Counted from the first letter of the stretch, positions 11,142 to 21,721 are shown. The stretch is DNA of 32,000 bases from an uncultured archaeon (GCA_964354495.1 CAYHAA010000004.1:60001-92000); one strand, 5' to 3'. The notes: generated by a model not told the origin, from the letters alone. Program-made: numbers and translations.

Positions 11142-12251
11142 TCATAGCCCAGATAGGGAGCTTACGGTAGTCGACGCTTGCTCTACTACCCAAGTCTTGT
11201 CCTTTGAGAGTGTCACAAATATGTCATCACAGGCTGCCTGAAAATCCTCATACAGCCCATACTCGCCTCCAGCGGCATATGGATGACCACCGCCATTAAA
11301 GAACTTCGCCGCCATGTTACACAATACAGTTTCTCGTCCTCTCCGTATTCCGAGCATTCCGCCTAGGCTCAACATGAGAAGTAAATCTGCAACCTCCAAA
11401 GACTCACCATCAAACCTCAGATTCTCAGGATCAGAAGCAAACGTGCCCATATCCGTGGAGGTCAGGCCATTGGGAATCTCAACTATCCGAACAAGTCGAT
11501 TATAGAGAACATGGTCACTATGTCCTGCAAGCGCCTTTCGCATCTTCTTAGCTTTCTCTTTCCGATAATGGTCAACACGTTTGTCTAGTAGTTGGTCCCT
11601 GAACTTCTTGTTTGCATCATCCCAGACTCCGACCACTCCACTCTCGGCAAGCTTTGAGAGGACTGGATAGAGTGCGTCTAGAACCTCTTCACCTTTATCA
11701 ATGGCTCCGAATCGAAGGACTGACACAGCATCAGTAAGCGCGTTAGCAGCAGGTATCTCCCTGAGATTAAAATCGGTATCGTGAGCGATTCTTGCAAGCT
11801 CAGCACAGACTTCATCGCGGGGCATCAAGACCTTCTGTGCTATCTCGGCTGCACAGTAGTCATGGTTAATCTTCAATACGGGTCTGTTGGGAAGTGAGAG
11901 TATAGCTTTGATTGACTGTTCAGACCATTGGTGATGATCTAACCAGACTAGGCGGCATCCCTGAGTCAATGCACGTGAGAGACCCTTGATAATGACGTCT
12001 TGCGTTGTTTCATCCATTCCAAGGTCGGTGACAACAATCAGTGTATCACGACGTGACGCAACTCCCGAGAACACCTGCTCGAACGCACCATAGTCAGTGA
12101 GATTCACACTGAACTCAAGCGTTTTTGACTTAGCGTACCTCCACACGATAGCAGCCGATGCTAATCCGTCAACATCCTTATCGTGGGAGAATGAGAGGAG
12201 AGAAGTAATCCTCTTTGTTTCTGCAGACCCGCTTTCTTGTCCTTCAGCCAT
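11142..12251 (-). CDS. DHH-family phosphoesterase (NrnA/RecJ-like)
   Basis: SHDKDVDG, VTDLG, LDHH, AHDTD and C-terminal GGGHPYAAG. Confidence 0.88.
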   Translation of the reverse strand: MAEGQESGSAETKRITSLLSFSHDKDVDGLASAAIVWRYAKSKTLEFSVNLTDYGAFEQVFSGVASRRDTLIVVTDLGMDETTQDVIIKGLSRALTQGCRLVWLDHHQWSEQSIKAILSLPNRPVLKINHDYCAAEIAQKVLMPRDEVCAELARIAHDTDFNLREIPAANALTDAVSVLRFGAIDKGEEVLDALYPVLSKLAESGVVGVWDDANKKFRDQLLDKRVDHYRKEKAKKMRKALAGHSDHVLYNRLVRIVEIPNGLTSTDMGTFASDPENLRFDGESLEVADLLLMLSLGGMLGIRRGRETVLCNMAAKFFNGGGHPYAAGGEYGLYEDFQAACDDIFVTLSKDKTWVVEQASTTVSSLSGL

Positions 12252-12342
12252 TTTGCGTTCGTCTTGTTGTTGAACATATGCCTTTTTTCTCTTCTGGAAA
12301 ATACCGGGGAGATACGAAAGTGTTTTTTGACGCAGAGTAAGA

Positions 12343-14214
12343 ATGAGGAACGGGATGAACGACTCTCAACATAGGACCATGATGAGCGGCAATGAGGCAA
12401 TTGCTCGCGGAGCAATAGAGGCAGGGATTGGATTCTGTTCCTCCTACCCAGGAACTCCAGCAACCGAGATTGCAGCAGAATTGTTTGATCTTGCGGATAA
12501 GCACGATATCTATGTAGAATGGAGCACAAATGAAAAAGTAGCACTTGAGGCTGCCGCTGGAGCCAGCTGGGCAGGGATTCCCGCTTTGTGCTCGATGAAA
12601 TCGCTCGGCCTCAATGTGGCTTCCGATTTTCTTCTTAACGTGAATCTCTCGGGCACAGGAAAGGGGGGGCTTGTCATTGTGGTATGCGATGATCCGAGAG
12701 GGCACAGTTCCAGCAACGAACAGGACTCCAGATTCTATGCAAAGGCTGCCCAAATCCCGTTGCTAGAACCTTCAACATATCAAGAGGCAAAGGATGTCAC
12801 ACGATTTGCATTCAGACTCTCCCAGCAGTTCGAAATACCAGTCATAGTGAGGAGTACCACAAGGCTCTCTCACTCCCGAGGGCTGGTCAAGAAAGGGATG
12901 GTTTCAAAGAGGAAGAAGACAGCCAGTGCTCTACCTGAGAAACTGTACAATGTACCCATGCCGCACTTGAGGCATAGAGACCTGTTAGAGAAGATGGACA
13001 GAGTCGTCGCGGAGTTTGACACATCAGGTCTTAACTCGCATGACAACATAGAAGATATGGAACTACTGGTCATCTCAAGTGGCATCTGCTCAATGTATGT
13101 GCAGGAGGCTTTACACCTTCTCGAGTCCACGAAGACGGGGCATCTGAACATCGTGACGACACATCCATTGCCTAAGAAGACTATAACTAGTCTGCTCGAA
13201 AAGGCCAATCGAGTTCTCTTCGTGGAGGAAACTGACCCCTTCGTAGAAGATGAAGTCAGATCTCTTTCGGCGGACCTTGAGGAACTACCAGCGTTTTATG
13301 GCAAGCGGACAGGACACGTTCCAAGTTACGGAGAGATGAATACAGATACTGTCAAAGCAGCCATTGGAAGGATAGATGGAACTAGTGTGGATGAGAAACG
13401 ACTTGGACAGGCAGCAGGAGCAGACCTACTCATCAATAGACCCTTGAGCTTCTGTGCCGGATGTACCCATCGTAATTTCTATTGGGCCATCCGAAAAGTC
13501 AAGAAGAGGAGGGGTGGAAAACTTGTGGTTGCAGGTGATATTGGTTGCTACTCACTCGGTGTATTCTATGATGAGGCTATGAACACTATGCAGGCAATGG
13601 GTTCTGGGATTGGAGTGGCCTGTGGCCTCAGCAAACTTGAGAGATTCGGTTTTGATTCCAAGATTGTTGCTGTTGCAGGCGATTCAACATTCTTCCATGC
13701 TTGCTTACCAGGACTAGTCAATGCAAGACATAAGAACGCCAATCTCACCTTTGTCATTCTGGACAATGCAACGACTGCAATGACTGGCTTCCAGACACAT
13801 CCCGGATCCCGCCATCAAGCGGAGGGCCTCAGACGAGTGGAGATAGAGGGTATTGTGAAGGCTCTGCAGCCAGACGTCTATGCCAAAGGAAACGCGAATG
13901 ATATCAAAGGTCTTATTGACCTCCTTCACTCGACTATCAACAAAGACGGTTTGAAGGTTCTTCTTCTGGATAGCATCTGTAGGCTTGATCGGGACACAAG
14001 AAACCAAGAATCAAAGAATGGTGCATTCCTAGTAGATCCGGAAATCTGTAGAGGTGAGAAATGTAGAATATGCTTTGCGGACTTCGGTTGTCCCGCAATC
14101 AGTTGGGACAGCGCAATAGGGCAACCGGTCATTTTGGATTCAATGTGTGCCAGATGCGGAGCCTGTGTTGATGTCTGTCCTCACGATGCAATCAGGGGAG
14201 AGAGATTACAATGA
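12343..14214 (+). CDS. iorA: Indolepyruvate:ferredoxin oxidoreductase alpha subunit
   Basis: MSGNEAIARGA, YPGTPATEI, EWSTNEKVALE, DDP..HSS.NEQDSR, FCAGCTHR, GDIGCY, GDSTFFH...LDN and a C-terminal ferredoxin (CARCGACVDVCP). Start may be at a downstream ATG. Confidence 0.95.
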   Translation: MRNGMNDSQHRTMMSGNEAIARGAIEAGIGFCSSYPGTPATEIAAELFDLADKHDIYVEWSTNEKVALEAAAGASWAGIPALCSMKSLGLNVASDFLLNVNLSGTGKGGLVIVVCDDPRGHSSSNEQDSRFYAKAAQIPLLEPSTYQEAKDVTRFAFRLSQQFEIPVIVRSTTRLSHSRGLVKKGMVSKRKKTASALPEKLYNVPMPHLRHRDLLEKMDRVVAEFDTSGLNSHDNIEDMELLVISSGICSMYVQEALHLLESTKTGHLNIVTTHPLPKKTITSLLEKANRVLFVEETDPFVEDEVRSLSADLEELPAFYGKRTGHVPSYGEMNTDTVKAAIGRIDGTSVDEKRLGQAAGADLLINRPLSFCAGCTHRNFYWAIRKVKKRRGGKLVVAGDIGCYSLGVFYDEAMNTMQAMGSGIGVACGLSKLERFGFDSKIVAVAGDSTFFHACLPGLVNARHKNANLTFVILDNATTAMTGFQTHPGSRHQAEGLRRVEIEGIVKALQPDVYAKGNANDIKGLIDLLHSTINKDGLKVLLLDSICRLDRDTRNQESKNGAFLVDPEICRGEKCRICFADFGCPAISWDSAIGQPVILDSMCARCGACVDVCPHDAIRGERLQ

Positions 14215-14831
14215 GAGAACCCTTCAATATTCTCGTGGCCGGTGTAGGAGGGCAGGGAAACCTTGTCTGTGGAAGGGTACTGGCAGATGCTGCAATACGA
14301 CAAGGCCTACAACCAGTAGTTGGTGATACCTTTGGGGCATCGCGACGAGGAGGCAGCGTCTTGACGCACCTTCGTATTGGAACCAGGGACTGGGCACCAC
14401 TTATCCCCAAGGGAGAAGTCGATATCTTGCTCGGACTTGAGCCATTGGAGGCATTCAGAGCAGCCGCGGAGTACGCAGGGGGACGCACCATAGCCATAAC
14501 CAGTCTTACTAAGGTTCCAACAGCGGACATTAACTCTGGAGAGATTGAGTATCCACCACTAGAGAGAATCTCAGCAGCACTTGCAGGACTCTGCAGGCAG
14601 GTATACATGCTTGACACAGATGCAGCACTTTCCCGAATCGGTTCTCCTCGTGTGCTGAATTCCTTCATGTTGGGTTCTATGTCAAGTCTTCCACAAAGCC
14701 CTCTGACTCGAACCAACATTCGAAAGTCCCTGCAAGCACTTCTGGGCTCTGAGGCGGCCAATTTGGCCGCCTTTGATGAGGGAGTTAATGTGCTTCAAGC
14801 AAATCAGAGCATGACCAGAAGCGCTTTTTAG
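14211..14831 (+). CDS. iorB: Indolepyruvate:ferredoxin oxidoreductase beta subunit
   Basis: ILVAGVGGQG, GASRRGGSVLTHLRIG, LLGLEPLEA; ATGA overlap with iorA. Confidence 0.93.
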   Translation: MREPFNILVAGVGGQGNLVCGRVLADAAIRQGLQPVVGDTFGASRRGGSVLTHLRIGTRDWAPLIPKGEVDILLGLEPLEAFRAAAEYAGGRTIAITSLTKVPTADINSGEIEYPPLERISAALAGLCRQVYMLDTDAALSRIGSPRVLNSFMLGSMSSLPQSPLTRTNIRKSLQALLGSEAANLAAFDEGVNVLQANQSMTRSAF

Positions 14832-14911
14832 GGTGTTTGCACGGAATCCGAATTGGTGGAGTTCCTAGAATCCTCTGCAGAACCGCTAATCGGGAAAGAG
14901 CAGGACTGACC

Positions 14912-15358
14912 ATGAGCAAAAGAAAGAAGAGCAAGTCAATTGAGGATGTTACAGTTTCAGAACTACTTGATGATTTTGTGAGCCTGGAGGAACCCGACAA
15001 TCGTTACGAATCAACAGAGGTGACCGACGAGGACTATGTGACGTCCATGCTCAAGAAAGATGCAAAGAAGACACTAGCCAAGTACAGAAAGGAACCGGAA
15101 ACTTCCGCCAACGAGAGGTCGGAAGAGAAGAACACACCCATCAAGAGAAAGAAGAGAGAGGATGCACCTGTACTGTCTGAGAGACTATCTCCCATGAGGA
15201 GATGTCAAAGCTGCTACTTCTGCGTGGCAGTCCGTACTGTCGGTGGTTCAAGCTGGTGTAACTGCACAAATCCCGGCAGGTCAACTGAAGGGAGCCCTGA
15301 AAAGCGATGGATAAAGAGTAGACTCAATCTACTCTGTTGGAAGACAAAGCAGCAGTAG
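14912..15358 (+). CDS. Hypothetical protein, charged N-terminus and Cys-rich C-terminus
   Basis: ATG 14912 (MSKRKKSK); C-terminal CQSCYFC...WCNC...CW. Confidence 0.65.
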   Translation: MSKRKKSKSIEDVTVSELLDDFVSLEEPDNRYESTEVTDEDYVTSMLKKDAKKTLAKYRKEPETSANERSEEKNTPIKRKKREDAPVLSERLSPMRRCQSCYFCVAVRTVGGSSWCNCTNPGRSTEGSPEKRWIKSRLNLLCWKTKQQ

Positions 15359-15450
15359 GCTACATCACTCACATCTTGAAGTAATAGCAGTCCGTAGCAA
15401 GACTCTGGACTGATTCGCATTACCAGCACACGCGAAGACTAAGCATGCAC

Positions 15451-17766
15451 CTAGATTTCTGTCTTCCTGCCCTCTTGGGCCTTTCGAGCCTCGCGCCACA
15501 TTATCTCAGCAAGGACAGTGAACATATCTGCGACACCATCGCCCGTCTTAGCAGAGCTCTCCATATAGACGAAGCCCTGATCTTCCGCCCAGCGCTTAGA
15601 TTCATCAGAGGGTACTGCACGATCAGGTAAGTCCGTCTTGTTACCAACACAGACTGTGGGTACGCGAGCACCAACGGACTCATCTGCCTCTTGCACCCAC
15701 TTAGACAACTCTGTGAACGAGCGTCTTCGGGTGACATCGAAGACAATGATAACACCAGCTGCTCCGGAATAGTACATTTTGCGTACTGCCTTGAATCGGG
15801 CCTGGCCAGCAACGTCCCATGCTTGGATTTTGATACCAGTGGCATACTCAGCATCAGGGGGTGATATGTGAGTGAGTTTCACAGCGAACTGAGACCCAAT
15901 AGTGGTCTTGTAGTCACGCTCAAAGGTACCTGTGACATATCGATTGACGAGGGTAGTCTTTCCGACCGCACCTTCTCCAACAACCATTAGTTTGAACAGA
16001 TACTGATATGAATCAGGAGCAGAGCCGGGTCGTGGAGCCTTAGGTCGTCTGTTCCGAATTTCTGTGACGATGGCACTCTCAGTATCACTCGTTTCAACAA
16101 TCGCTGGAGCCACAACAGGAGCAGGCTCAGCCATGAGCTTCTCAACATCGTCAAACTCGGTCATTGCCTTTCTGGACTCATCTGCTCCGAACAATTGGTC
16201 CAAAAGTTCCTCTGCAGCCTTCAGCGAGTCAGTACTGCCCTCTGGCATGGTTTCCTCAAGAATCTTGGCAGCAGCCGCTTTCTGCGCAATATCCTTGAAC
16301 CCTGTACCAACAACCGGCCCGAAGAGAAACTCCTCTTCTATTAGGGTTTCTTTTGCGGAAACAGTGGCAGTGGGCTCGATTGGTACCGGGGGTGTGGCCG
16401 CATGAGCTGCGACAGCTGCGCCCATTTTGACAAGAATAGCGGTTTCTGGTGTGGTGACTTGCCTTACCTGACCAGACACGTCGGTCCACATCAACACAAT
16501 GGGACGAATGATTACGGTCCCCTCTTTCTTTGGATTCAGCTGAATCCCAATGCTCTTGTTCTCTCCAGGAGCTAGGTCAAATCGAAGCTGCTGTGGCTCA
16601 ACATCCATGTCATCTTTCGGAAAGTGATAGATCTTGCCAGCGATACCATTCACCGGTTCATCACTGACGTTATAGACTGTGAGCTTTCCTCGGAGAGCAG
16701 TCCCAGTCTTTGCCTCGGGATTGACCTCAAAGACAGGAATAATCTTGTAAAGACCCTCAAACACCTTGAGAGGTCCATTGGAAACGCCGACCTGTACCTC
16801 TTTCCGTCCGTCGCCTCCTGCGTCACCCACATTGATTGCAAGAATCTTACTTCCGATGTCAATCTCTGAAAGCAGTAAGAGGTCCGCCATGTAAAGACTG
16901 TAGAATCGTACCTTATGATCTTGGGTGGCTACAATAACCTCGTCCAAGTGGTCTGCGTTGATTTCTTGAACCCGCACAGACATGGCATTTACGTTTTCCA
17001 GCTTGGAGAACAGATCGAGTTTACTCTCTTCATTGCGATATACGCGGATAGAACCATCACGTGTGACAACAGCCAATTCCATCTTACGATCGCCAAGCAT
17101 GTCTCCAGACGCCAGGGATACGATCGGACTGGGAAGCTCAAGAACATCAATTTGGTCCAAGGAGTGGTCCCGCACTTTGAAGACTCTCAACGTGTTATCT
17201 CTGTTGCCTGTGACTATCTCATCAATCTCATCGCCATCGACATCACAGATCCCGATTGCTAGGGGCATATCATGGAGTCGGTGCATAGAAAACTGCGTAA
17301 TGTTGTTTTGAGTGTCCATATTGAGTATCCGCAATGTAGAGTCGCTGCCACCGACCATGATCTCATTCTTCTCATCACCGGTCACGTCAGTCACACGGAC
17401 CGTTGTAACGAATCTGTCCACGGCATACTCGCCAAGTATTTCGAACTGACCCTTGAGAGCATACCTGAACACTTGAACTGTACCAGCAATACCTGGTGTC
17501 TCTTTTGGGCCAATAGCACGACCAACTATGACCTCCATCAGCCCATCGTTGTTCGCGTCAGCAATCTCGATAGAGAGGATGCTGCCGCCAACATCGTATT
17601 GAGTAAGGAACAAGATCTCTGCATGATTCGCGCTATATAGCCGGAGGACACCATCACGTCCACCAGTACACAACTCCATTGTTCCAGAACCAGTGACATC
17701 GCCGACTGCAATCGCACTGGTGCTCTGATCGTCTTTTATTTCGAAGAGTGTCTTTGGCGAACCCAA
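15451..17766 (-). CDS. Fusion protein: 7-bladed FG-GAP-like beta-propeller, Ig-like domain, linker and Rab-like small GTPase
   Basis: Seven D(V/A)xGDGxxE-hydrophobic-G-xxD-xx-LR repeats. GTPase domain about 15451-16008 with GEGAVGKT (G1), TIG (G2), WDVAGQ (G3), NKTD (G4), SAK (G5). TTG start. Confidence 0.9.
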   Translation of the reverse strand: MGSPKTLFEIKDDQSTSAIAVGDVTGSGTMELCTGGRDGVLRLYSANHAEILFLTQYDVGGSILSIEIADANNDGLMEVIVGRAIGPKETPGIAGTVQVFRYALKGQFEILGEYAVDRFVTTVRVTDVTGDEKNEIMVGGSDSTLRILNMDTQNNITQFSMHRLHDMPLAIGICDVDGDEIDEIVTGNRDNTLRVFKVRDHSLDQIDVLELPSPIVSLASGDMLGDRKMELAVVTRDGSIRVYRNEESKLDLFSKLENVNAMSVRVQEINADHLDEVIVATQDHKVRFYSLYMADLLLLSEIDIGSKILAINVGDAGGDGRKEVQVGVSNGPLKVFEGLYKIIPVFEVNPEAKTGTALRGKLTVYNVSDEPVNGIAGKIYHFPKDDMDVEPQQLRFDLAPGENKSIGIQLNPKKEGTVIIRPIVLMWTDVSGQVRQVTTPETAILVKMGAAVAAHAATPPVPIEPTATVSAKETLIEEEFLFGPVVGTGFKDIAQKAAAAKILEETMPEGSTDSLKAAEELLDQLFGADESRKAMTEFDDVEKLMAEPAPVVAPAIVETSDTESAIVTEIRNRRPKAPRPGSAPDSYQYLFKLMVVGEGAVGKTTLVNRYVTGTFERDYKTTIGSQFAVKLTHISPPDAEYATGIKIQAWDVAGQARFKAVRKMYYSGAAGVIIVFDVTRRRSFTELSKWVQEADESVGARVPTVCVGNKTDLPDRAVPSDESKRWAEDQGFVYMESSAKTGDGVADMFTVLAEIMWREARKAQEGRKTEI

Positions 17767-17937
17767 GTAAGTTACCTTCTCGTGATATGCTTAGCACACG
17801 ATGTTTATCGAGGACTATAAAGAGACCTCAATATGTATACCTACACCCCTATTCAGGGTGCTTTTTCTACTTTGTGCGCTTAACCTCCTCACTCAGAATA
17901 CAGGTTTAGAGCACAGTATTTAACAGATAATTGATAC

Positions 17938-18759
17938 ATGACCACAATGGATGCAGAAATGTTCAAACTCTCGGTCCGAAATCTGACAAAGGCATATCCA
18001 AATGGCGACTCAGGAGAAACCCAGGTCCTAGATCACATATCCTTTGATGTATCTAAGGGTGAATTCTTGGGTATCGTCGGACCAAGCGGGTGCGGCAAGA
18101 CAACGCTCCTCAAAATCATTGCAGGACTACTCGAGCCTGATCAAGGACAGGTACTCATCGACGGGCAAGAGGTGGAAACAGGTCATAATCGTGTAGGCTA
18201 CATATTCCAACAGGAATCATTGTTTCCTTGGAGGACAGTGAGGCAGAATATCGAGTTCGGCCTGGAGGTAAAGGGAGTCCCAGAAAAGGAGCGAAGAGAG
18301 AAGTCCGACGAGATTATTAAAATCGTGGGAATGGAAGGTCTTGAGAAGAATTACCCGCATGAAATATCTGGAGGCCAAGCAAGGAAGACGGAGATGGCGC
18401 GTAGTCTTGTGGTGTCGCCCGATATACTAGTCGCTGATGAAGCTCTCCTTAATCTCGATGCACAGACCAGAAACTATCTCCAAGAGGAGTTCCTCAGAAT
18501 TCGGGACTTGACTGGGTCGACGATTGTATTCGTTTCCCATAATGTTGATGAAGCAGTCTTCATGTCAGACAGGATTCTAGTACTGAGCAACCTGCCTGCA
18601 AGAGTCATCGCTGAATATAAAGTGGAGATTTCAAGACCTCGAATAAGAACCTCACAGGAGTGCCTCTCCTACCGTAGTAAGATCCTTGATATCCTAAGTA
18701 TTGAACAACAGAAAGCAATGAGTAGATCATTCAGACCGAAACAGTCTGTCTCCACCTGA
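17938..18759 (+). CDS. ABC transporter ATP-binding subunit (NitT/TauT/SsuB type)
   Basis: GPSGCGKT, FQQESLFPWRTV, ISGGQ, ILVADE, VSHNVDEAV. Confidence 0.93.
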   Translation: MTTMDAEMFKLSVRNLTKAYPNGDSGETQVLDHISFDVSKGEFLGIVGPSGCGKTTLLKIIAGLLEPDQGQVLIDGQEVETGHNRVGYIFQQESLFPWRTVRQNIEFGLEVKGVPEKERREKSDEIIKIVGMEGLEKNYPHEISGGQARKTEMARSLVVSPDILVADEALLNLDAQTRNYLQEEFLRIRDLTGSTIVFVSHNVDEAVFMSDRILVLSNLPARVIAEYKVEISRPRIRTSQECLSYRSKILDILSIEQQKAMSRSFRPKQSVST

Positions 18760-19564
18760 GCAAGTATTTCTCAATGTACAGGAAGAGGTAGCTAATGAGG
18801 AAGCCAACCAGGCCGATAAGGAGCATGCTTGCTATGACAGCGCCTGTTTGGCCTATTTGCTGCATAATAAGGACAAGGTAACCAAGTCCGAGCCCACCCC
18901 CAATCATCTCAGCTGCGACAAGACACATCCAACCGATGCCGAAGCCAATTCTGAGACCAGCGAACACCTCTGGTCCTGCTGAGGGAATCACCACTCTTGA
19001 GAGAATGTGCCATTCGGTTGCGCCAAAAGTCTTGGCAACATCAATATGCACGGGCTCTGTTCGTTTGACGCCCGTTGTTGTATTGATGAGAATAGGAAAG
19101 AAAGCTCCGACCCATATGATGAAGACCTGGGCACCCAACATGTTTGAACGGAAGAGAAGTATTGCGAGAGGAATCCACGCAATTGGAGGAATGGGACGCA
19201 TTGCCTCCACAACAGGGCCGAGCACGGAATCGAACAAATGATAGCGTCCTATCAGAATACCCAATGGGATTCCTGTGGCGGCAGCAAATGCAAAGCCAAT
19301 AATCACTCGTGTCAGACTCATCTGTATATGCTCTGACAGGAGATGACCGTCACTATCGCCCACGAGCGCTAGTCTTACTAGAGCATCAACTACATCAAGT
19401 AACGAAGTCTGTGTCAGGTATGCTATGAGCTGCCAGAGCACGATGAGGATGGTGGCGGGTATGATGATTCTAGAAATAATCCACTGAAAAGAACCACGAA
19501 GGTTCTTACGGCCGTGCGTGGCGCCTGTGAACCTAGTATTTTGCTCCGTTTCTGATAGGGACAT
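18731..19564 (-). CDS. ABC transporter permease (NitT/TauT/SsuC type)
   Basis: SLTRVIIGF, RPIPPIAWIPLAIL, EAA-like loop VAKTFGATEWHILSRVVIPSA, LVAAEM. Confidence 0.93.
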   Translation of the reverse strand: MSLSETEQNTRFTGATHGRKNLRGSFQWIISRIIIPATILIVLWQLIAYLTQTSLLDVVDALVRLALVGDSDGHLLSEHIQMSLTRVIIGFAFAAATGIPLGILIGRYHLFDSVLGPVVEAMRPIPPIAWIPLAILLFRSNMLGAQVFIIWVGAFFPILINTTTGVKRTEPVHIDVAKTFGATEWHILSRVVIPSAGPEVFAGLRIGFGIGWMCLVAAEMIGGGLGLGYLVLIMQQIGQTGAVIASMLLIGLVGFLISYLFLYIEKYLLRWRQTVSV

Positions 19565-19588
19565 TCTACTCGGGGCTGCTAGGAGATG

Positions 19589-20611
19589 CTACGCTTTTTT
19601 GTCTATCGTTTCGCTATGCCACAAGTGAAGACCATCAACATAGGTCGTGTTTATGAAAGCATCCAGGAACGCTGAGGTGTCAGAAGGTATCTTCTCTGGA
19701 AGAAGTTGTTCTTCGTCGATAAGAAAATCCAGATAGATCTCTAGCGCAGTTCTATTCACATTATAGTCAAAGATGATGCGATTGAAAGCTGTCGTTACCG
19801 GGCTTTCCTCCATCTCAAGCCAGTCCACAGCAATTGCTATTGCCTCCTCTGTATTGTTCAGAATCCACTCTTCAGCTTCCACATGGATATCTACGACCTT
19901 CTGCACGATATCCGGATGAGCAGTAAGAAACGCGTTATCAGAAGCGACCACACAACAGGGATGACGCGGCCAGATATCGCTCGAGAGAACTAGTGGCACT
20001 GCTTCACCATCATACTCGGCCTTTGCATTGAATGGTTCCCATGCAATGAAGGCAGGATTTTCAGCTGTGAGGAGATCAGCCATGAGGGACGGTTGTGTTG
20101 TCAGTGCCGTGATGTTTGAATAGCTGAGACCAGATTGATTTAGGGCTAGGCGAAGCAGAAAGTTTTGAACCGATGAAGGACCAGGTTGATGGACACCCTT
20201 GCCAACAAGATCACCAATAGTTGTGACGTGCCCAGCATCATATTCTTCTTTTGATACCATTATAGCAGAACCCTCAAGATTCGCCGCAGCCAGAACTGTG
20301 ATTGGAATGTCCTGGTTGATACGCTTCACAATCGCAGGAGCAGCTCCCAAGTAACCCATGTCTATCTGCCCTGCAAGGAACCCATCCATTTCAAGACCTC
20401 CATTACCGTACTGGACAAGCTCCACGGTAAGATTCTCTCGTTCAAATAGGCCGTTCTCCAGAGCTACACGTAGAGCAAGCTGATGGAGGTCCTTGGAGAG
20501 GTAGCCAATTCGCACATCCGGAGTCGGTGTTGGATTCCAGAGAATAACGAATCCGATTGATACAATGACAATGGCAATTACCCCGACTGCAATAGCTTTG
20601 TCTCTTTCCAA
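19589..20611 (-). CDS. ABC transporter substrate-binding protein (SsuA/NrtA type), N-terminal membrane anchor
   Basis: N-terminal TM helix, VRIGYL..LHQLAL, WEPF, WPRHPCCV. TTG start. Confidence 0.9.
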   Translation of the reverse strand: MERDKAIAVGVIAIVIVSIGFVILWNPTPTPDVRIGYLSKDLHQLALRVALENGLFERENLTVELVQYGNGGLEMDGFLAGQIDMGYLGAAPAIVKRINQDIPITVLAAANLEGSAIMVSKEEYDAGHVTTIGDLVGKGVHQPGPSSVQNFLLRLALNQSGLSYSNITALTTQPSLMADLLTAENPAFIAWEPFNAKAEYDGEAVPLVLSSDIWPRHPCCVVASDNAFLTAHPDIVQKVVDIHVEAEEWILNNTEEAIAIAVDWLEMEESPVTTAFNRIIFDYNVNRTALEIYLDFLIDEEQLLPEKIPSDTSAFLDAFINTTYVDGLHLWHSETIDKKA

Positions 20612-20717
20612 CTTTCGATGCCTCTGAGGTCATGAATCGCCAATTCGCATATGAGGGTTGAGAATAAGGCTTCCGGTGCCATCAAGTTGATTAGTACGAG
20701 GGCATTAGGGTTTCAGC

Positions 20718-21092
20718 ATGTCACTCAGAGACCGGATACCAGATCAGTTGAGAATTGGTGATGCAATGATTGGAATCACCATGGAAGAGGACTTGGCTGT
20801 ATTTCCGACGAGTGAATACGTGCTTCTTGAGATCTCCCATAAAGCTGGAAGAGTGAATATTCCGAGGATTGTCAATACACTTCAGGGGCTCGTAAGGGAT
20901 GACCGGAGAATGGTTGCAATCAGGGGATTTGGCTTCAAGGGAATAGGTCTCGCTGTACGTGTCGCTCACGAGCTCAAAATGGGAGAGAAGAAGTTCACCT
21001 ATGAGATGACCTTTGATACGTTCGACGCAACAGACCCGGAGGATAACAGTCCAGTTACAAGTGTGCAAATCATCGTGCTTCCGCCAAAATAG
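20718..21092 (+). CDS. Alba-like (Alba/Rpp20/Rpp25 fold) nucleic-acid-binding protein with N-terminal extension
   Basis: MVAIRGFGFKGIGLAVRVAHELK...TFDTF...VTSVQIIV parallels Alba (V.IKARGRAISKAVDVAE....IGTE....VS.IEI.L). Confidence 0.65.
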   Translation: MSLRDRIPDQLRIGDAMIGITMEEDLAVFPTSEYVLLEISHKAGRVNIPRIVNTLQGLVRDDRRMVAIRGFGFKGIGLAVRVAHELKMGEKKFTYEMTFDTFDATDPEDNSPVTSVQIIVLPPK

Positions 21093-21097
21093 TCACC

Positions 21098-21721
21098 TTG
21101 AGGCAGAATTCCATCGAAAAAGAGCGTGACCATGTGACCAAGCCTTCCAAGGAGATGCGGAATGGGCATCGTGTAAGAACCAGATTGTCAAGGATTCATT
21201 TCCCTGAAGTCTGTCCGGTCTGTTCTGATGGAGCGGAGGATCTTGTGTTTATCACCGTCATGGAGCAACAGCGCCCTGACAGCTATGAAACGACATCGAT
21301 GATCAAGGGAGAAGACAAGGCATCTATAGCACTGGAAATAGCAAGAGGAGCCACTACCTTTCCTGTTCCTACCTGCTTGAGACACGGTGGCAAGAGCGTG
21401 AGGAGTGTCCGAACCAAGCTCGTTGCAGCAGCGGGCTTCTTCATCTTCTTCTATCCGATTCTTTTCTTTCTTCTCCAGATTAATACTGCATTAATCTATT
21501 CAAGGTCTGTGACAGAGCCAGTCGTTGGACTGCTGGTTTTCACCGCTGCTCTTGCCGGTATGTTTCTCTATGGTCTCTTCCCAAGAGCTCTTGAACGAGC
21601 ATTGAAGTTCGAGAATATAGACAGGGCTAAAGACGAAGTGGAAGTCATCATGACAAACAGTGATTACAGAGGAAAATTCATTGAGTTGAATGAGATGTTT
21701 GCGGAGAGTGTGGAAGATTAG
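21098..21721 (+). CDS. Hypothetical membrane protein with putative Zn-binding motifs
   Basis: CPVC and TCLRH motifs, then two TM helices. Start uncertain; a downstream GTG or ATG is possible. Confidence 0.7.
   Translation: MRQNSIEKERDHVTKPSKEMRNGHRVRTRLSRIHFPEVCPVCSDGAEDLVFITVMEQQRPDSYETTSMIKGEDKASIALEIARGATTFPVPTCLRHGGKSVRSVRTKLVAAAGFFIFFYPILFFLLQINTALIYSRSVTEPVVGLLVFTAALAGMFLYGLFPRALERALKFENIDRAKDEVEVIMTNSDYRGKFIELNEMFAESVED

Follow-up and report, generated by a model that had tools for sequence, protein, structure and literature searches.

A conserved propeller–Ig–linker–Rab-like GTPase fusion specific to the archaeal order Thorarchaeales

Does an archaeal gene joining a beta-propeller, an immunoglobulin (Ig)-like domain and a Rab-like GTPase in one chain record a precursor of the GTPase-gated coats of eukaryotes, or a more local event of domain shuffling? 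The question is raised by a stretch of 32,000 nucleotides from an uncultured archaeon (GCA_964354495.1, CAYHAA010000004.1:60001-92000), referred to as the window, in which an open reading frame (ORF) at positions 15451..17766 of the minus strand encodes a protein of 771 amino acids (P0001, hereafter the Thor protein), with a TTG start and 0 internal stops. A preliminary description had quoted seven blades, a sandwich and a GTPase from this segment, and all of these strings were found in its translation; the strand, absent from that description, is the sole correction to the observation. The product is a cytoplasmic multidomain GTPase in which a seven-bladed propeller of prokaryotic FG-GAP type and a rigidly attached ASH-like Ig domain are followed by an acidic and largely disordered linker of about 135 residues, and then by a catalytically complete Rab-like G domain, which stems from the paralogue group to which the crystallised Thor-Rab belongs. 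With a probability of roughly 0.6, we read it as a lineage-specific nucleotide-gated scaffold produced by domain shuffling, and not as a proto-coat. The parts of the gene are the following, in window positions:

15451..17766, minus strand: whole gene (protein P0001), TTG start at 17766, stop at 15451-15453
16747..17766, minus strand: seven-bladed beta-propeller of FG-GAP class, residues 1-340
17532-17558 and 17217-17243, minus strand: loops of blades 2 and 4, resembling the integrin/FG-GAP Ca2+ loop
16417..16746, minus strand: Ig-like beta-sandwich against the propeller, weakly ASH/DUF1573-like, residues 341-450
16012..16416, minus strand: acidic, Ala/Pro-rich linker, variable save three islands, residues 451-585
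16297..16329, minus strand: linker island 1, F-x-F-G-P-x-x-G-T-G-F, residues 480-490
16186..16227, minus strand: linker island 2, S-L-K-A-A-E-x-L-L-D-Q-L-F-G, residues 514-527
16024..16080, minus strand: linker island 3, E-S-x-x-V-x-E-I-R-x-R-x-P-K-x-x-x-P-G, leading into the G domain, residues 563-581
15454..16011, minus strand: complete Rab-like GTPase of the Thor-Rab subgroup with a short basic tail, residues 586-771

The gene is real, strongly conserved, single-copy and nearly universal, and it is specific to Thorarchaeales (Thorarchaeia, Asgard archaea). More than 160 clusters (90% identity) from NCBI, JGI, ENA and Logan matched the protein over its full length at 62-97% identity, which places the architecture far beyond chance; nearly all of the clusters named by their source were labelled Thorarchaeota, and their annotation was merely 'GTP-binding protein'. 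Orthologues measured 757-826 amino acids and had the same start residue as the 771-residue protein. The phyletic survey was based on one representative genome per species and on a match threshold of E<=1e-20. A single copy was found in 77 of the 85 genomes from the family of the window, and the gene was present in the one genome sampled from a sister family of the same order (1/1). The fusion was thereby confined to one order, with 78 matches in 86 genomes and 0 in the 314 genomes from the rest of the phylum. Completeness was 52-93% in the eight family genomes that gave no match. In the window's own genome (3.3 Mb, 97.7% complete), 27 Ras-family matches were counted, of which this gene alone is joined to a propeller. 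It is excluded that two separate genes were brought together by error, be it through chimeric assembly, which the preliminary description had allowed for, or through a faulty gene call. Besides the stop-free reading frame and the independent sources of the >160 clusters, the full-length architecture was recovered on long contigs, the longest measuring 3.16 Mb, some of them genomes assembled into a single contig. A contig of 11.4 kb from an unrelated run spanned the whole gene at ~98% identity, and one from a second study bridged the GTPase, the linker and the Ig domain with no joint. GTPase-less versions were either labelled partial or located on short contigs, and the fusion was never split across >160 clusters or 79 genomes.

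Constraint is strongest in the GTPase, where the mean top-residue frequency is 0.91, as against 0.82 for the propeller and 0.64 for the linker. Residues 592-754 matched the Pfam Ras model (PF00071) with 155.8 bits (cut-off 21.6), and motifs G1 (GEGAVGKT at 597), G3 (DVAGQ at 651, with the catalytic Gln), G4 (NKTD at 709) and G5 (SAK at 738) were identified, the switch-I Thr being located in YKTTIGSQF. All G motifs and the catalytic Gln were invariant among 20 diverse members. The Rab-family-like segments IGSQF, KIQAW, RFKAV, YYSGA and IIVFDVT were present, by comparison with the RabF1-5 consensus; the earlier assignment of a complete Rab-like GTPase was confirmed. Rabs bind their effectors through a hydrophobic triad, which is retained here (F627, W650 and Y665/666). 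Thor-Rab was the best match in the PDB (7EZB, E 6e-43), and the best 60 PDB matches consisted thereafter of Rab, Ypt and Sec4 proteins only (Rab14, Rab1, Sec4, Rab11). The Pfam Roc model also matched the G domain (106.4 bits), as it does Rab-like domains generally; no COR or kinase match was obtained with Pfam, and only a tail of 11 residues follows the G domain. Cysteine was absent from the last 12 residues in 121 of 122 full-length members, which therefore have no C-terminal CC/CXC prenylation motif, and no other membrane-binding determinant was detected in the 771 residues (neither a transmembrane segment nor an amphipathic anchor).

This domain was compared with others of its own genome, which has about 17 further Rab-like paralogues. 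The nearest of them, a stand-alone protein of 195 amino acids, shares 51% identity with the fused domain and is itself nearer to Thor-Rab (187.5 bits). In an unrooted maximum-likelihood tree combining 13 fused G domains with 16 paralogues of this genome, the fused domains all fell together, to the same side of a branch with support 98/95. The fused group adjoins the 195-residue paralogue (85/56) and lies within a group holding the Thor-Rab orthologue (86/83). Two further observations concern these GTPases. Compared with Thor-Rab 7EZB, the interswitch beta2-beta3 hairpin (residues about 632-645, I-S-P-P-D-A-E-Y-A-T-G) carries an insertion of four residues that is conserved across the family, in a hairpin belonging to the usual effector-binding face. 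Additionally, Rab-like GTPase genes were found in pairs separated by 0.1-3 kb at three places of the genome (G000:C1:214886-218492, C1:564385-566770 and C11:69879-70918), and the apparent Thor-Rab orthologue (C1:218007-218492) belongs to one such pair.

The N-terminal half was folded with high confidence: the AlphaFold2 model of residues 1-450 had a pLDDT (predicted local distance difference test) of 92.3 and a pTM (predicted template modelling score) of 0.86, with 28 strands in residues 1-340, i.e. seven blades of four strands, followed by an all-beta sandwich. Blades bear a signature of the type D-x-x-G-D-x-x-x-E ... G-x-x-D-G-x-[LI]-[RK]-[VLI]-[FY]. Pfam FG-GAP_3 (PF13517) was matched over five stretches with 64.2 bits (cut-off 26.9). 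Three further models, all with a cut-off of 27, were matched as well, namely BBS2_Mid (57.7 bits), Beta-prop_BBS7 (57.8 bits) and, over short stretches, Itfg2 (36.1 bits); PHTB1_N (24.5 bits, cut-off 28.6) and BBS1 (15.3 bits) stayed below theirs. FG-GAP/VCBS propellers are typically secreted or exposed at the surface, unlike the Thor protein: no signal peptide, transmembrane segment or hydrophobic N-terminus was detected in its 771 residues (highest KD19 value 1.38), and this lack of an export signal, together with the C-terminal GTPase, indicates a cytoplasmic location. The loops of two blades deserve mention. Dx[DN]x[DN]G-type loops of FG-GAP blades bind Ca2+ in integrins, and similar ones occur in blades 2 and 4, as an invariant D-A-N-N-D-G-x-x-E and a largely conserved D-V-D-G-D-E-I-D-E respectively, while the other five blades depart from this form.

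The sandwich is a generic Ig fold, weakly ASH-like. It was predicted with a pLDDT of 94 when folded alone by AlphaFold2, and the pTM obtained for residues 1-450 suggests that its orientation relative to the propeller is fixed. The Pfam ASH model (PF15780) aligned to residues 353-418 with 23 bits, under its cut-off of 27, and reached the sub-threshold level of E<=0.01 in 16 of 21 members; CARDB and adaptin-ear models of Pfam gave no match. Its fold matches were generic and formed a continuum that includes the lumenal domain of the TRAP complex (TM-score 0.78-0.81), and a profile of the Ig domain retrieved nothing significant from the PDB sequences (best E 0.15).

Propellers of this kind are found elsewhere in Asgard archaea without export signals. 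The nearest mid-sized relatives with a named source were all signal-less Asgard proteins, namely a Promethearchaeota protein of 796 amino acids, the Freyarchaeota propeller-kinase and a Helarchaeales FG-GAP protein. The Freyarchaeota proteins (P0206 and P0273, 742-859 amino acids, Candidatus Freyarchaeota) associate a signal-less FG-GAP propeller with a C-terminal Ser/Thr kinase (Pkinase, 167.8 bits), which suggests that this propeller can be reused in the cytoplasm, as an input or scaffold module attached to eukaryote-like signalling domains. A signal-less propeller cluster of Promethearchaeota comprises 81 members. A stand-alone propeller paralogue of 337 amino acids, with neither Ig domain nor GTPase, was observed in the same genome (L002:1180-2193, minus strand, corresponding to G000:C12, about 89.1-90.1 kb). 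It has 28% identity to residues 96-333 of the Thor protein, matches Beta-prop_BBS7 (29.9 bits) and FG-GAP_3 (37.9 bits), and its gene is situated between those of a CDP-alcohol phosphatidyltransferase and of an HD-domain protein. No GTPase gene was found beside the unfused propeller genes (P0148, P0128 and the 337-residue paralogue), although three loci are not evidence of absence. Two very large ORFs of the genome, of 2671 and 2283 amino acids, weakly matched the propeller (E 2e-6 and 5e-5, at G000:C3:101793-102431, L003, and G000:C4:109847-110443, L004, the latter ~18 kb past the window end); they may encode giant surface proteins of FG-GAP/VCBS type.

The preliminary description had compared the propeller and sandwich with BBSome subunits, and this likeness was upheld as far as solved structures are concerned. 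In fold searches of PDB and Swiss-Prot, BBS2, BBS9, BBS7 and BBS1 came out on top, their alignments spanning the propeller and the Ig/GAE domain, and ITFG2 was among the best solved-structure matches. The highest Z-score was that of BBS2 (36.0, 17% identity), with generic WD40 propellers within 2-3 Z units. The likeness was not specific, however, as prokaryotic FG-GAP proteins proved equal or better. Among the 2.3 million fold clusters of AFDB, the top matches were prokaryotic proteins with FG-GAP, VCBS, Calx-beta, IPT/TIG, CARDB or bacterial-Ig domains, aligned over residues 1-450 (E 5e-20 to 1e-17); BBS2 appeared at rank 9 (4.7e-18) and PTHB1 at rank 16. Bacterial clusters of the ESM Atlas combining FG-GAP with Ig domains of ASH/DUF1573/HYDIN type were superposed on residues 1-440 with TM-scores of 0.70-0.75 and a root-mean-square deviation (rmsd) of 3-4 Å, as against a TM-score of about 0.59 and an rmsd of about 21 Å for BBS2 over both domains. 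BBS alignments had rmsd values of 20-30 Å because the domains are arranged differently.

Sequence comparison pointed to the same relatives. A phmmer search with residues 1-450 against 1.84 billion representatives returned three full-length family clusters, after which scores fell from 373 to 113 bits onto FG-GAP proteins; the nearest of these ranged overall from 67 to 113 bits, and prokaryotic relatives of the size of a single propeller from 67 to 88 bits. A homologue search based on the N-terminal alignment yielded family members only and no named outgroups, and an atlas search with the whole protein yielded no usable match. Furthermore, secreted prokaryotic FG-GAP proteins exceeded the Pfam cut-offs of BBS2_Mid, BBS7 and Itfg2. 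Protein P0237, with InlB-type repeats and a C-terminal anchor, scored 84.9 bits with BBS2_Mid, and P0135, a secreted FG-GAP protein with a signal peptide and DUF11, also passed BBS-type models, so that passing them does not discriminate between the two classes. The PF23743 model matched 0 of 14 well-known control genomes, but the FG-GAP content of these genomes was unchecked and the specificity of the model is therefore not established. The BBSome likeness is shared by ordinary FG-GAP propellers of prokaryotes and does not demonstrate ancestry. Grouping with generic prokaryotic FG-GAP/VCBS proteins, which had been named beforehand as the finding that would speak against a coat relationship, was thus largely observed in fold and in sequence, with the one difference that the Thor protein lacks a signal peptide and a membrane segment.

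The linker differs from the domains on both sides. No Pfam family was matched in its 135 residues, of which 25 are D or E, 13 K or R, 23 A and 13 P. Island 1 was conserved in at least 60% of the 122 full-length members, its GTGF part in at least 90%; it was absent from P0119 and from the divergent sister lineage P0124/P0272. Island 2, conserved at 90% or more in the same 122 members, has six residues that were invariant among the 20 diverse members (A518, E519, L521, L522, L525 and F526), and it is probably an acidic amphipathic helix or a short linear motif. A part of island 3 (P-K...P-G...D-S-Y-x-Y-L-F-K) was retained in P0124. Short hydrophobic motifs that stay conserved within disordered, acidic stretches usually mark docking sites.

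A scenario can be proposed on these grounds. In the thorarchaeal lineage, a duplicate of a Thor-Rab-like gene would have been fused to an FG-GAP-propeller/Ig module; such modules are common in bacteria, and signal-less FG-GAP propellers are present in several Asgard lineages. The G domain, with its Rab hydrophobic triad retained, would cycle between GTP and GDP forms, and the propeller-Ig module would serve as a protein-binding platform. The linker, with its conserved, probably helical LLDQLF segment and its GTGF motif, would couple switch and platform, either by docking in cis, which the nucleotide state would release or enforce, or by contacts in trans that assemble oligomers or recruit partners. 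Domain shuffling as the origin of the fusion fits a general statement on Asgard archaea, according to which most multidomain architectures of their eukaryotic signature proteins result from lineage-specific domain shuffling, some of them with prokaryotic domains (Liu et al., bioRxiv 10.1101/2020.10.19.343400).

Several points weigh against the nucleotide-gated scaffold. Nucleotide-dependent coupling between the domains is something that we infer from sequence; a complex prediction of residues 1-450 with residues 560-771, GTP and Mg gave a score of 0.00 and a mark of 0.32, which has no bearing on binding either way. Since the sister lineage P0124/P0272 has not conserved islands 1 and 2, these cannot be essential to every member. 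The genomic surroundings are silent, since the syntenic neighbours kept in eight genera, a 2-oxoacid:ferredoxin oxidoreductase and an ABC transporter, yield no functional hint, and no roadblock or longin gene resembling a guanine nucleotide exchange factor or a GTPase-activating protein adjoins the fusion gene. Concerning a purely prokaryotic affinity of the propeller, the family profile found by sequence, among solved structures, ITFG2 (36.6 bits, E 2e-8, profile positions 5-81) and BBS7 (22.3 bits, E 5e-4) alone, and not the integrins. Likewise, a 2026 preprint lists a structural cluster labelled 'BBS7/ITFG2' and exclusive to Asgard archaea and eukaryotes (bioRxiv 10.64898/2026.10.28.762692), and on this account a specific tie of the propeller to eukaryotic cytoplasmic propellers may still exist.

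These last two results also favour the proposal of the preliminary description, which saw a Rosetta-stone fusion hinting at an archaeal precursor of GTPase-gated coats or tethers. According to this proposal, the propeller and sandwich would be homologues and archaeal forerunners of BBS1/2/7/9 subunits, the fused GTPase being an ARL6-like recruiting switch. It can further draw on the rank of BBS2/9/7/1 in the solved-structure and Swiss-Prot matches of both domains, on the three Pfam models passed above their cut-offs (BBS2_Mid, Beta-prop_BBS7 and Itfg2), and on the fact that both eukaryotic complexes with propellers of this class are linked to small GTPases, the BBSome to ARL6 and KICSTOR, through GATOR1, to Rag. 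We found it unsupported and consider it highly improbable, because the family is confined to one order, because no membrane-binding determinant was found and because prokaryotic matches are as good or better. Prokaryotic FG-GAP/VCBS proteins with Ig domains have the same inter-domain orientation and are much nearer in sequence, and secreted ones pass the same Pfam BBS models (85 bits for BBS2_Mid). The sandwich is not followed by a coiled coil, a platform or the alpha-helical BBS domains; the G domain is Rab-like and not Arf/Arl-like; membrane determinants, such as an amphipathic N-terminal helix or a lipid anchor, are lacking from the protein; and its order is not the one usually placed nearest to eukaryotes. 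A broader form of the idea is that the signal-less FG-GAP-class propellers of Asgard archaea (the Thor fusion, its 337-residue paralogue, the Freyarchaeota propeller-kinase and the 81-member Promethearchaeota cluster) were the prokaryotic source of the cytoplasmic propellers that eukaryotes have in the BBSome (BBS1/2/7/9) and in KICSTOR (ITFG2, KPTN). This appears improbable; if true, the thorarchaeal fusion would record a pre-eukaryotic partnership of the propeller class with Ras-superfamily switches.

A different objection concerns the coupling rather than the origin. The linker could be a passive leash, the Rab-like domain acting on external partners and the propeller-Ig module carrying a fixed partner or cargo, with no regulation in cis, on the model of large Rabs of the Rab44/45/CRACR2A type, in which an adaptor is permanently attached to the Rab. 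A long, acidic and mostly variable linker agrees with such an arrangement, as do the loss of islands 1-2 in a sister lineage that has kept the domains, a G domain in which the Rab effector-binding triad and the switch motifs are fully kept, and the presence of about 17 further Rab-like paralogues, with which regulators are presumably shared. The conservation of the three islands at 90% or more in the main family (for island 1, in its GTGF part) would however be unneeded by a passive tether, and a fusion never split in >160 clusters and 79 genomes indicates that physical coupling matters; an unregulated leash is plausible, yet on balance unlikely. It is also conceivable that occupancy of the propeller by a cation or small ligand tunes the GTPase, given the resemblance of the blade 2 and blade 4 loops to a Ca2+ loop. 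With five blades off the cation-binding consensus, and such loops being structural in many FG-GAP propellers, a sensor of this kind is very doubtful.

Two further features surround the gene:

17774..17821, minus strand: possible own promoter and ribosome site of the fusion gene, read directly from the sequence
11142-21721 of the window, together with loci L012-L019: collinear block of eight genera of the family

Candidate signals upstream of the start are a TTTATA box at 17816-17821, ~50 nucleotides 5' of it, and a putative ribosome site, GAAGGT, at 17774-17779. The fusion gene is convergent with the 2-oxoacid:ferredoxin oxidoreductase genes and the ABC-ATPase gene upstream of it (ABC transporter) is divergent, and it appears to be monocistronic. 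In one metatranscriptome run, the only contig of the gene measured 217 nucleotides (16369-16574), too little to claim expression. Gene order was the same in eight genera: DHH, two 2-oxoacid:ferredoxin oxidoreductase subunits, the convergent fusion gene and the divergent ABC transporter. The whole block is composed of genes for a DHH phosphoesterase, the alpha and gamma subunits of the oxidoreductase, the fusion protein, an ABC ATPase, a permease, an NMT1-type binding protein and a 124-residue protein of unknown function; the 207-residue unknown encoded after the latter was matched in 5 of the 8 genera. A 173-residue ORF (14837-15358, plus strand) separates the gamma subunit gene from the fusion gene, whose 3' end faces it. 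This ORF had no tblastn counterpart in the syntenic regions of the eight other genera, where the flanking genes abut, and its Pfam matches were weak (Myb_Cef and Myosin_TH1). Either an insertion specific to the lineage or a spurious reading frame may account for it.

The architecture, of which the preliminary description knew no earlier account, appears to be undescribed: no paper on a propeller-Ig-linker-Rab fusion was found in the searchable literature. Nothing was retrieved either for Asgard archaea combined with BBSome, GTPase and propeller, or for KICSTOR and Asgard archaea, and no relevant link between Asgard archaea and Bardet-Biedl proteins was found. BBS, ITFG2 and propellers are not mentioned in the main text of Köstlbacher et al. 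2026 (PMC12962969). Asgard Rab-like GTPases themselves are known, and what is apparently new is a lineage-specific domain fusion built on one of them. Asgard small GTPases are central to debates on the origin of eukaryotic trafficking and signalling, and almost none has a known partner. In the Thor fusion the partner is fixed covalently, which could reveal what an archaeal Rab-like switch controls, and it is a tractable test case since it should be expressible in E. coli, like Thor-Rab. It is not evidence for a proto-coat; it is a good experimental handle on such a switch. A caution for genome annotation also follows: because ordinary prokaryotic FG-GAP propellers give the same results, Pfam or Foldseek matches to BBS2, BBS7 or ITFG2 alone do not mark a eukaryotic signature protein.

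Comparison with named systems places the Thor protein as follows. Thor-Rab (PDB 7EZB, 7EZD and 7EZE) has the same G1-G5 and RabF-like motifs and was the best sequence match to the fused G domain in the PDB, but it is a stand-alone protein of ~180 amino acids, whereas the G domain of the fusion comes after 585 residues of propeller, Ig domain and linker. Thor-Rab is likewise reported to be devoid of C-terminal prenylation cysteines, and each fusion listed in the same study joins the GTPase to a longin or roadblock domain (Tran et al. 2024, Commun Biol, PMC10933270). BBS2, BBS7, BBS9 and BBS1 of the BBSome (PDB 6VBU and 6VOA) share 11-17% identity with the Thor protein and differ from it in domain orientation. 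Their GAE domain is followed by platform and alpha-helical domains, with a coiled coil in BBS2 and BBS7, all of which it lacks. ARL6 is an Arl-type GTPase and a separate protein, while the Thor GTPase is Rab-like and covalently attached. ITFG2 of KICSTOR (PDB 9V6E and 9O5A) has neither an Ig domain nor a GTPase, unlike the Thor protein.

Bacterial proteins that associate FG-GAP/VCBS with ASH/DUF1573/HYDIN or other Ig domains (e.g. AFDB clusters D3FDA8 and A0A2V9RZ13, and ESM Atlas clusters from Acidobacteriota and Verrucomicrobiota) exhibit this two-domain module with its domains likewise oriented, and the same Pfam repeat family. A surface location is suggested for several of the AFDB and Atlas clusters by their dockerin and S-layer-type Ig domains, and the secreted relatives P0135 and P0237 bear a signal peptide or a membrane anchor; the Thor protein bears neither and is fused to a cytoplasmic GTPase. 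Covalent association of a G domain with protein-interaction repeats is known from the large Rabs (Rab44, Rab45/RASEF and CRACR2A/Rab46) and from ROCO proteins of the LRRK2 type. Large Rabs carry their Rab domain at the C-terminus, like the Thor protein, which lacks their EF-hands and coiled coil. ROCO proteins contain a COR domain or a kinase, for which the Thor protein has no Pfam match, and it belongs to neither of the two families. The likeness to both groups is an analogy of design only, no indication of common descent; in its logic, the Thor protein would resemble these large multidomain GTPases more than a vesicle coat.

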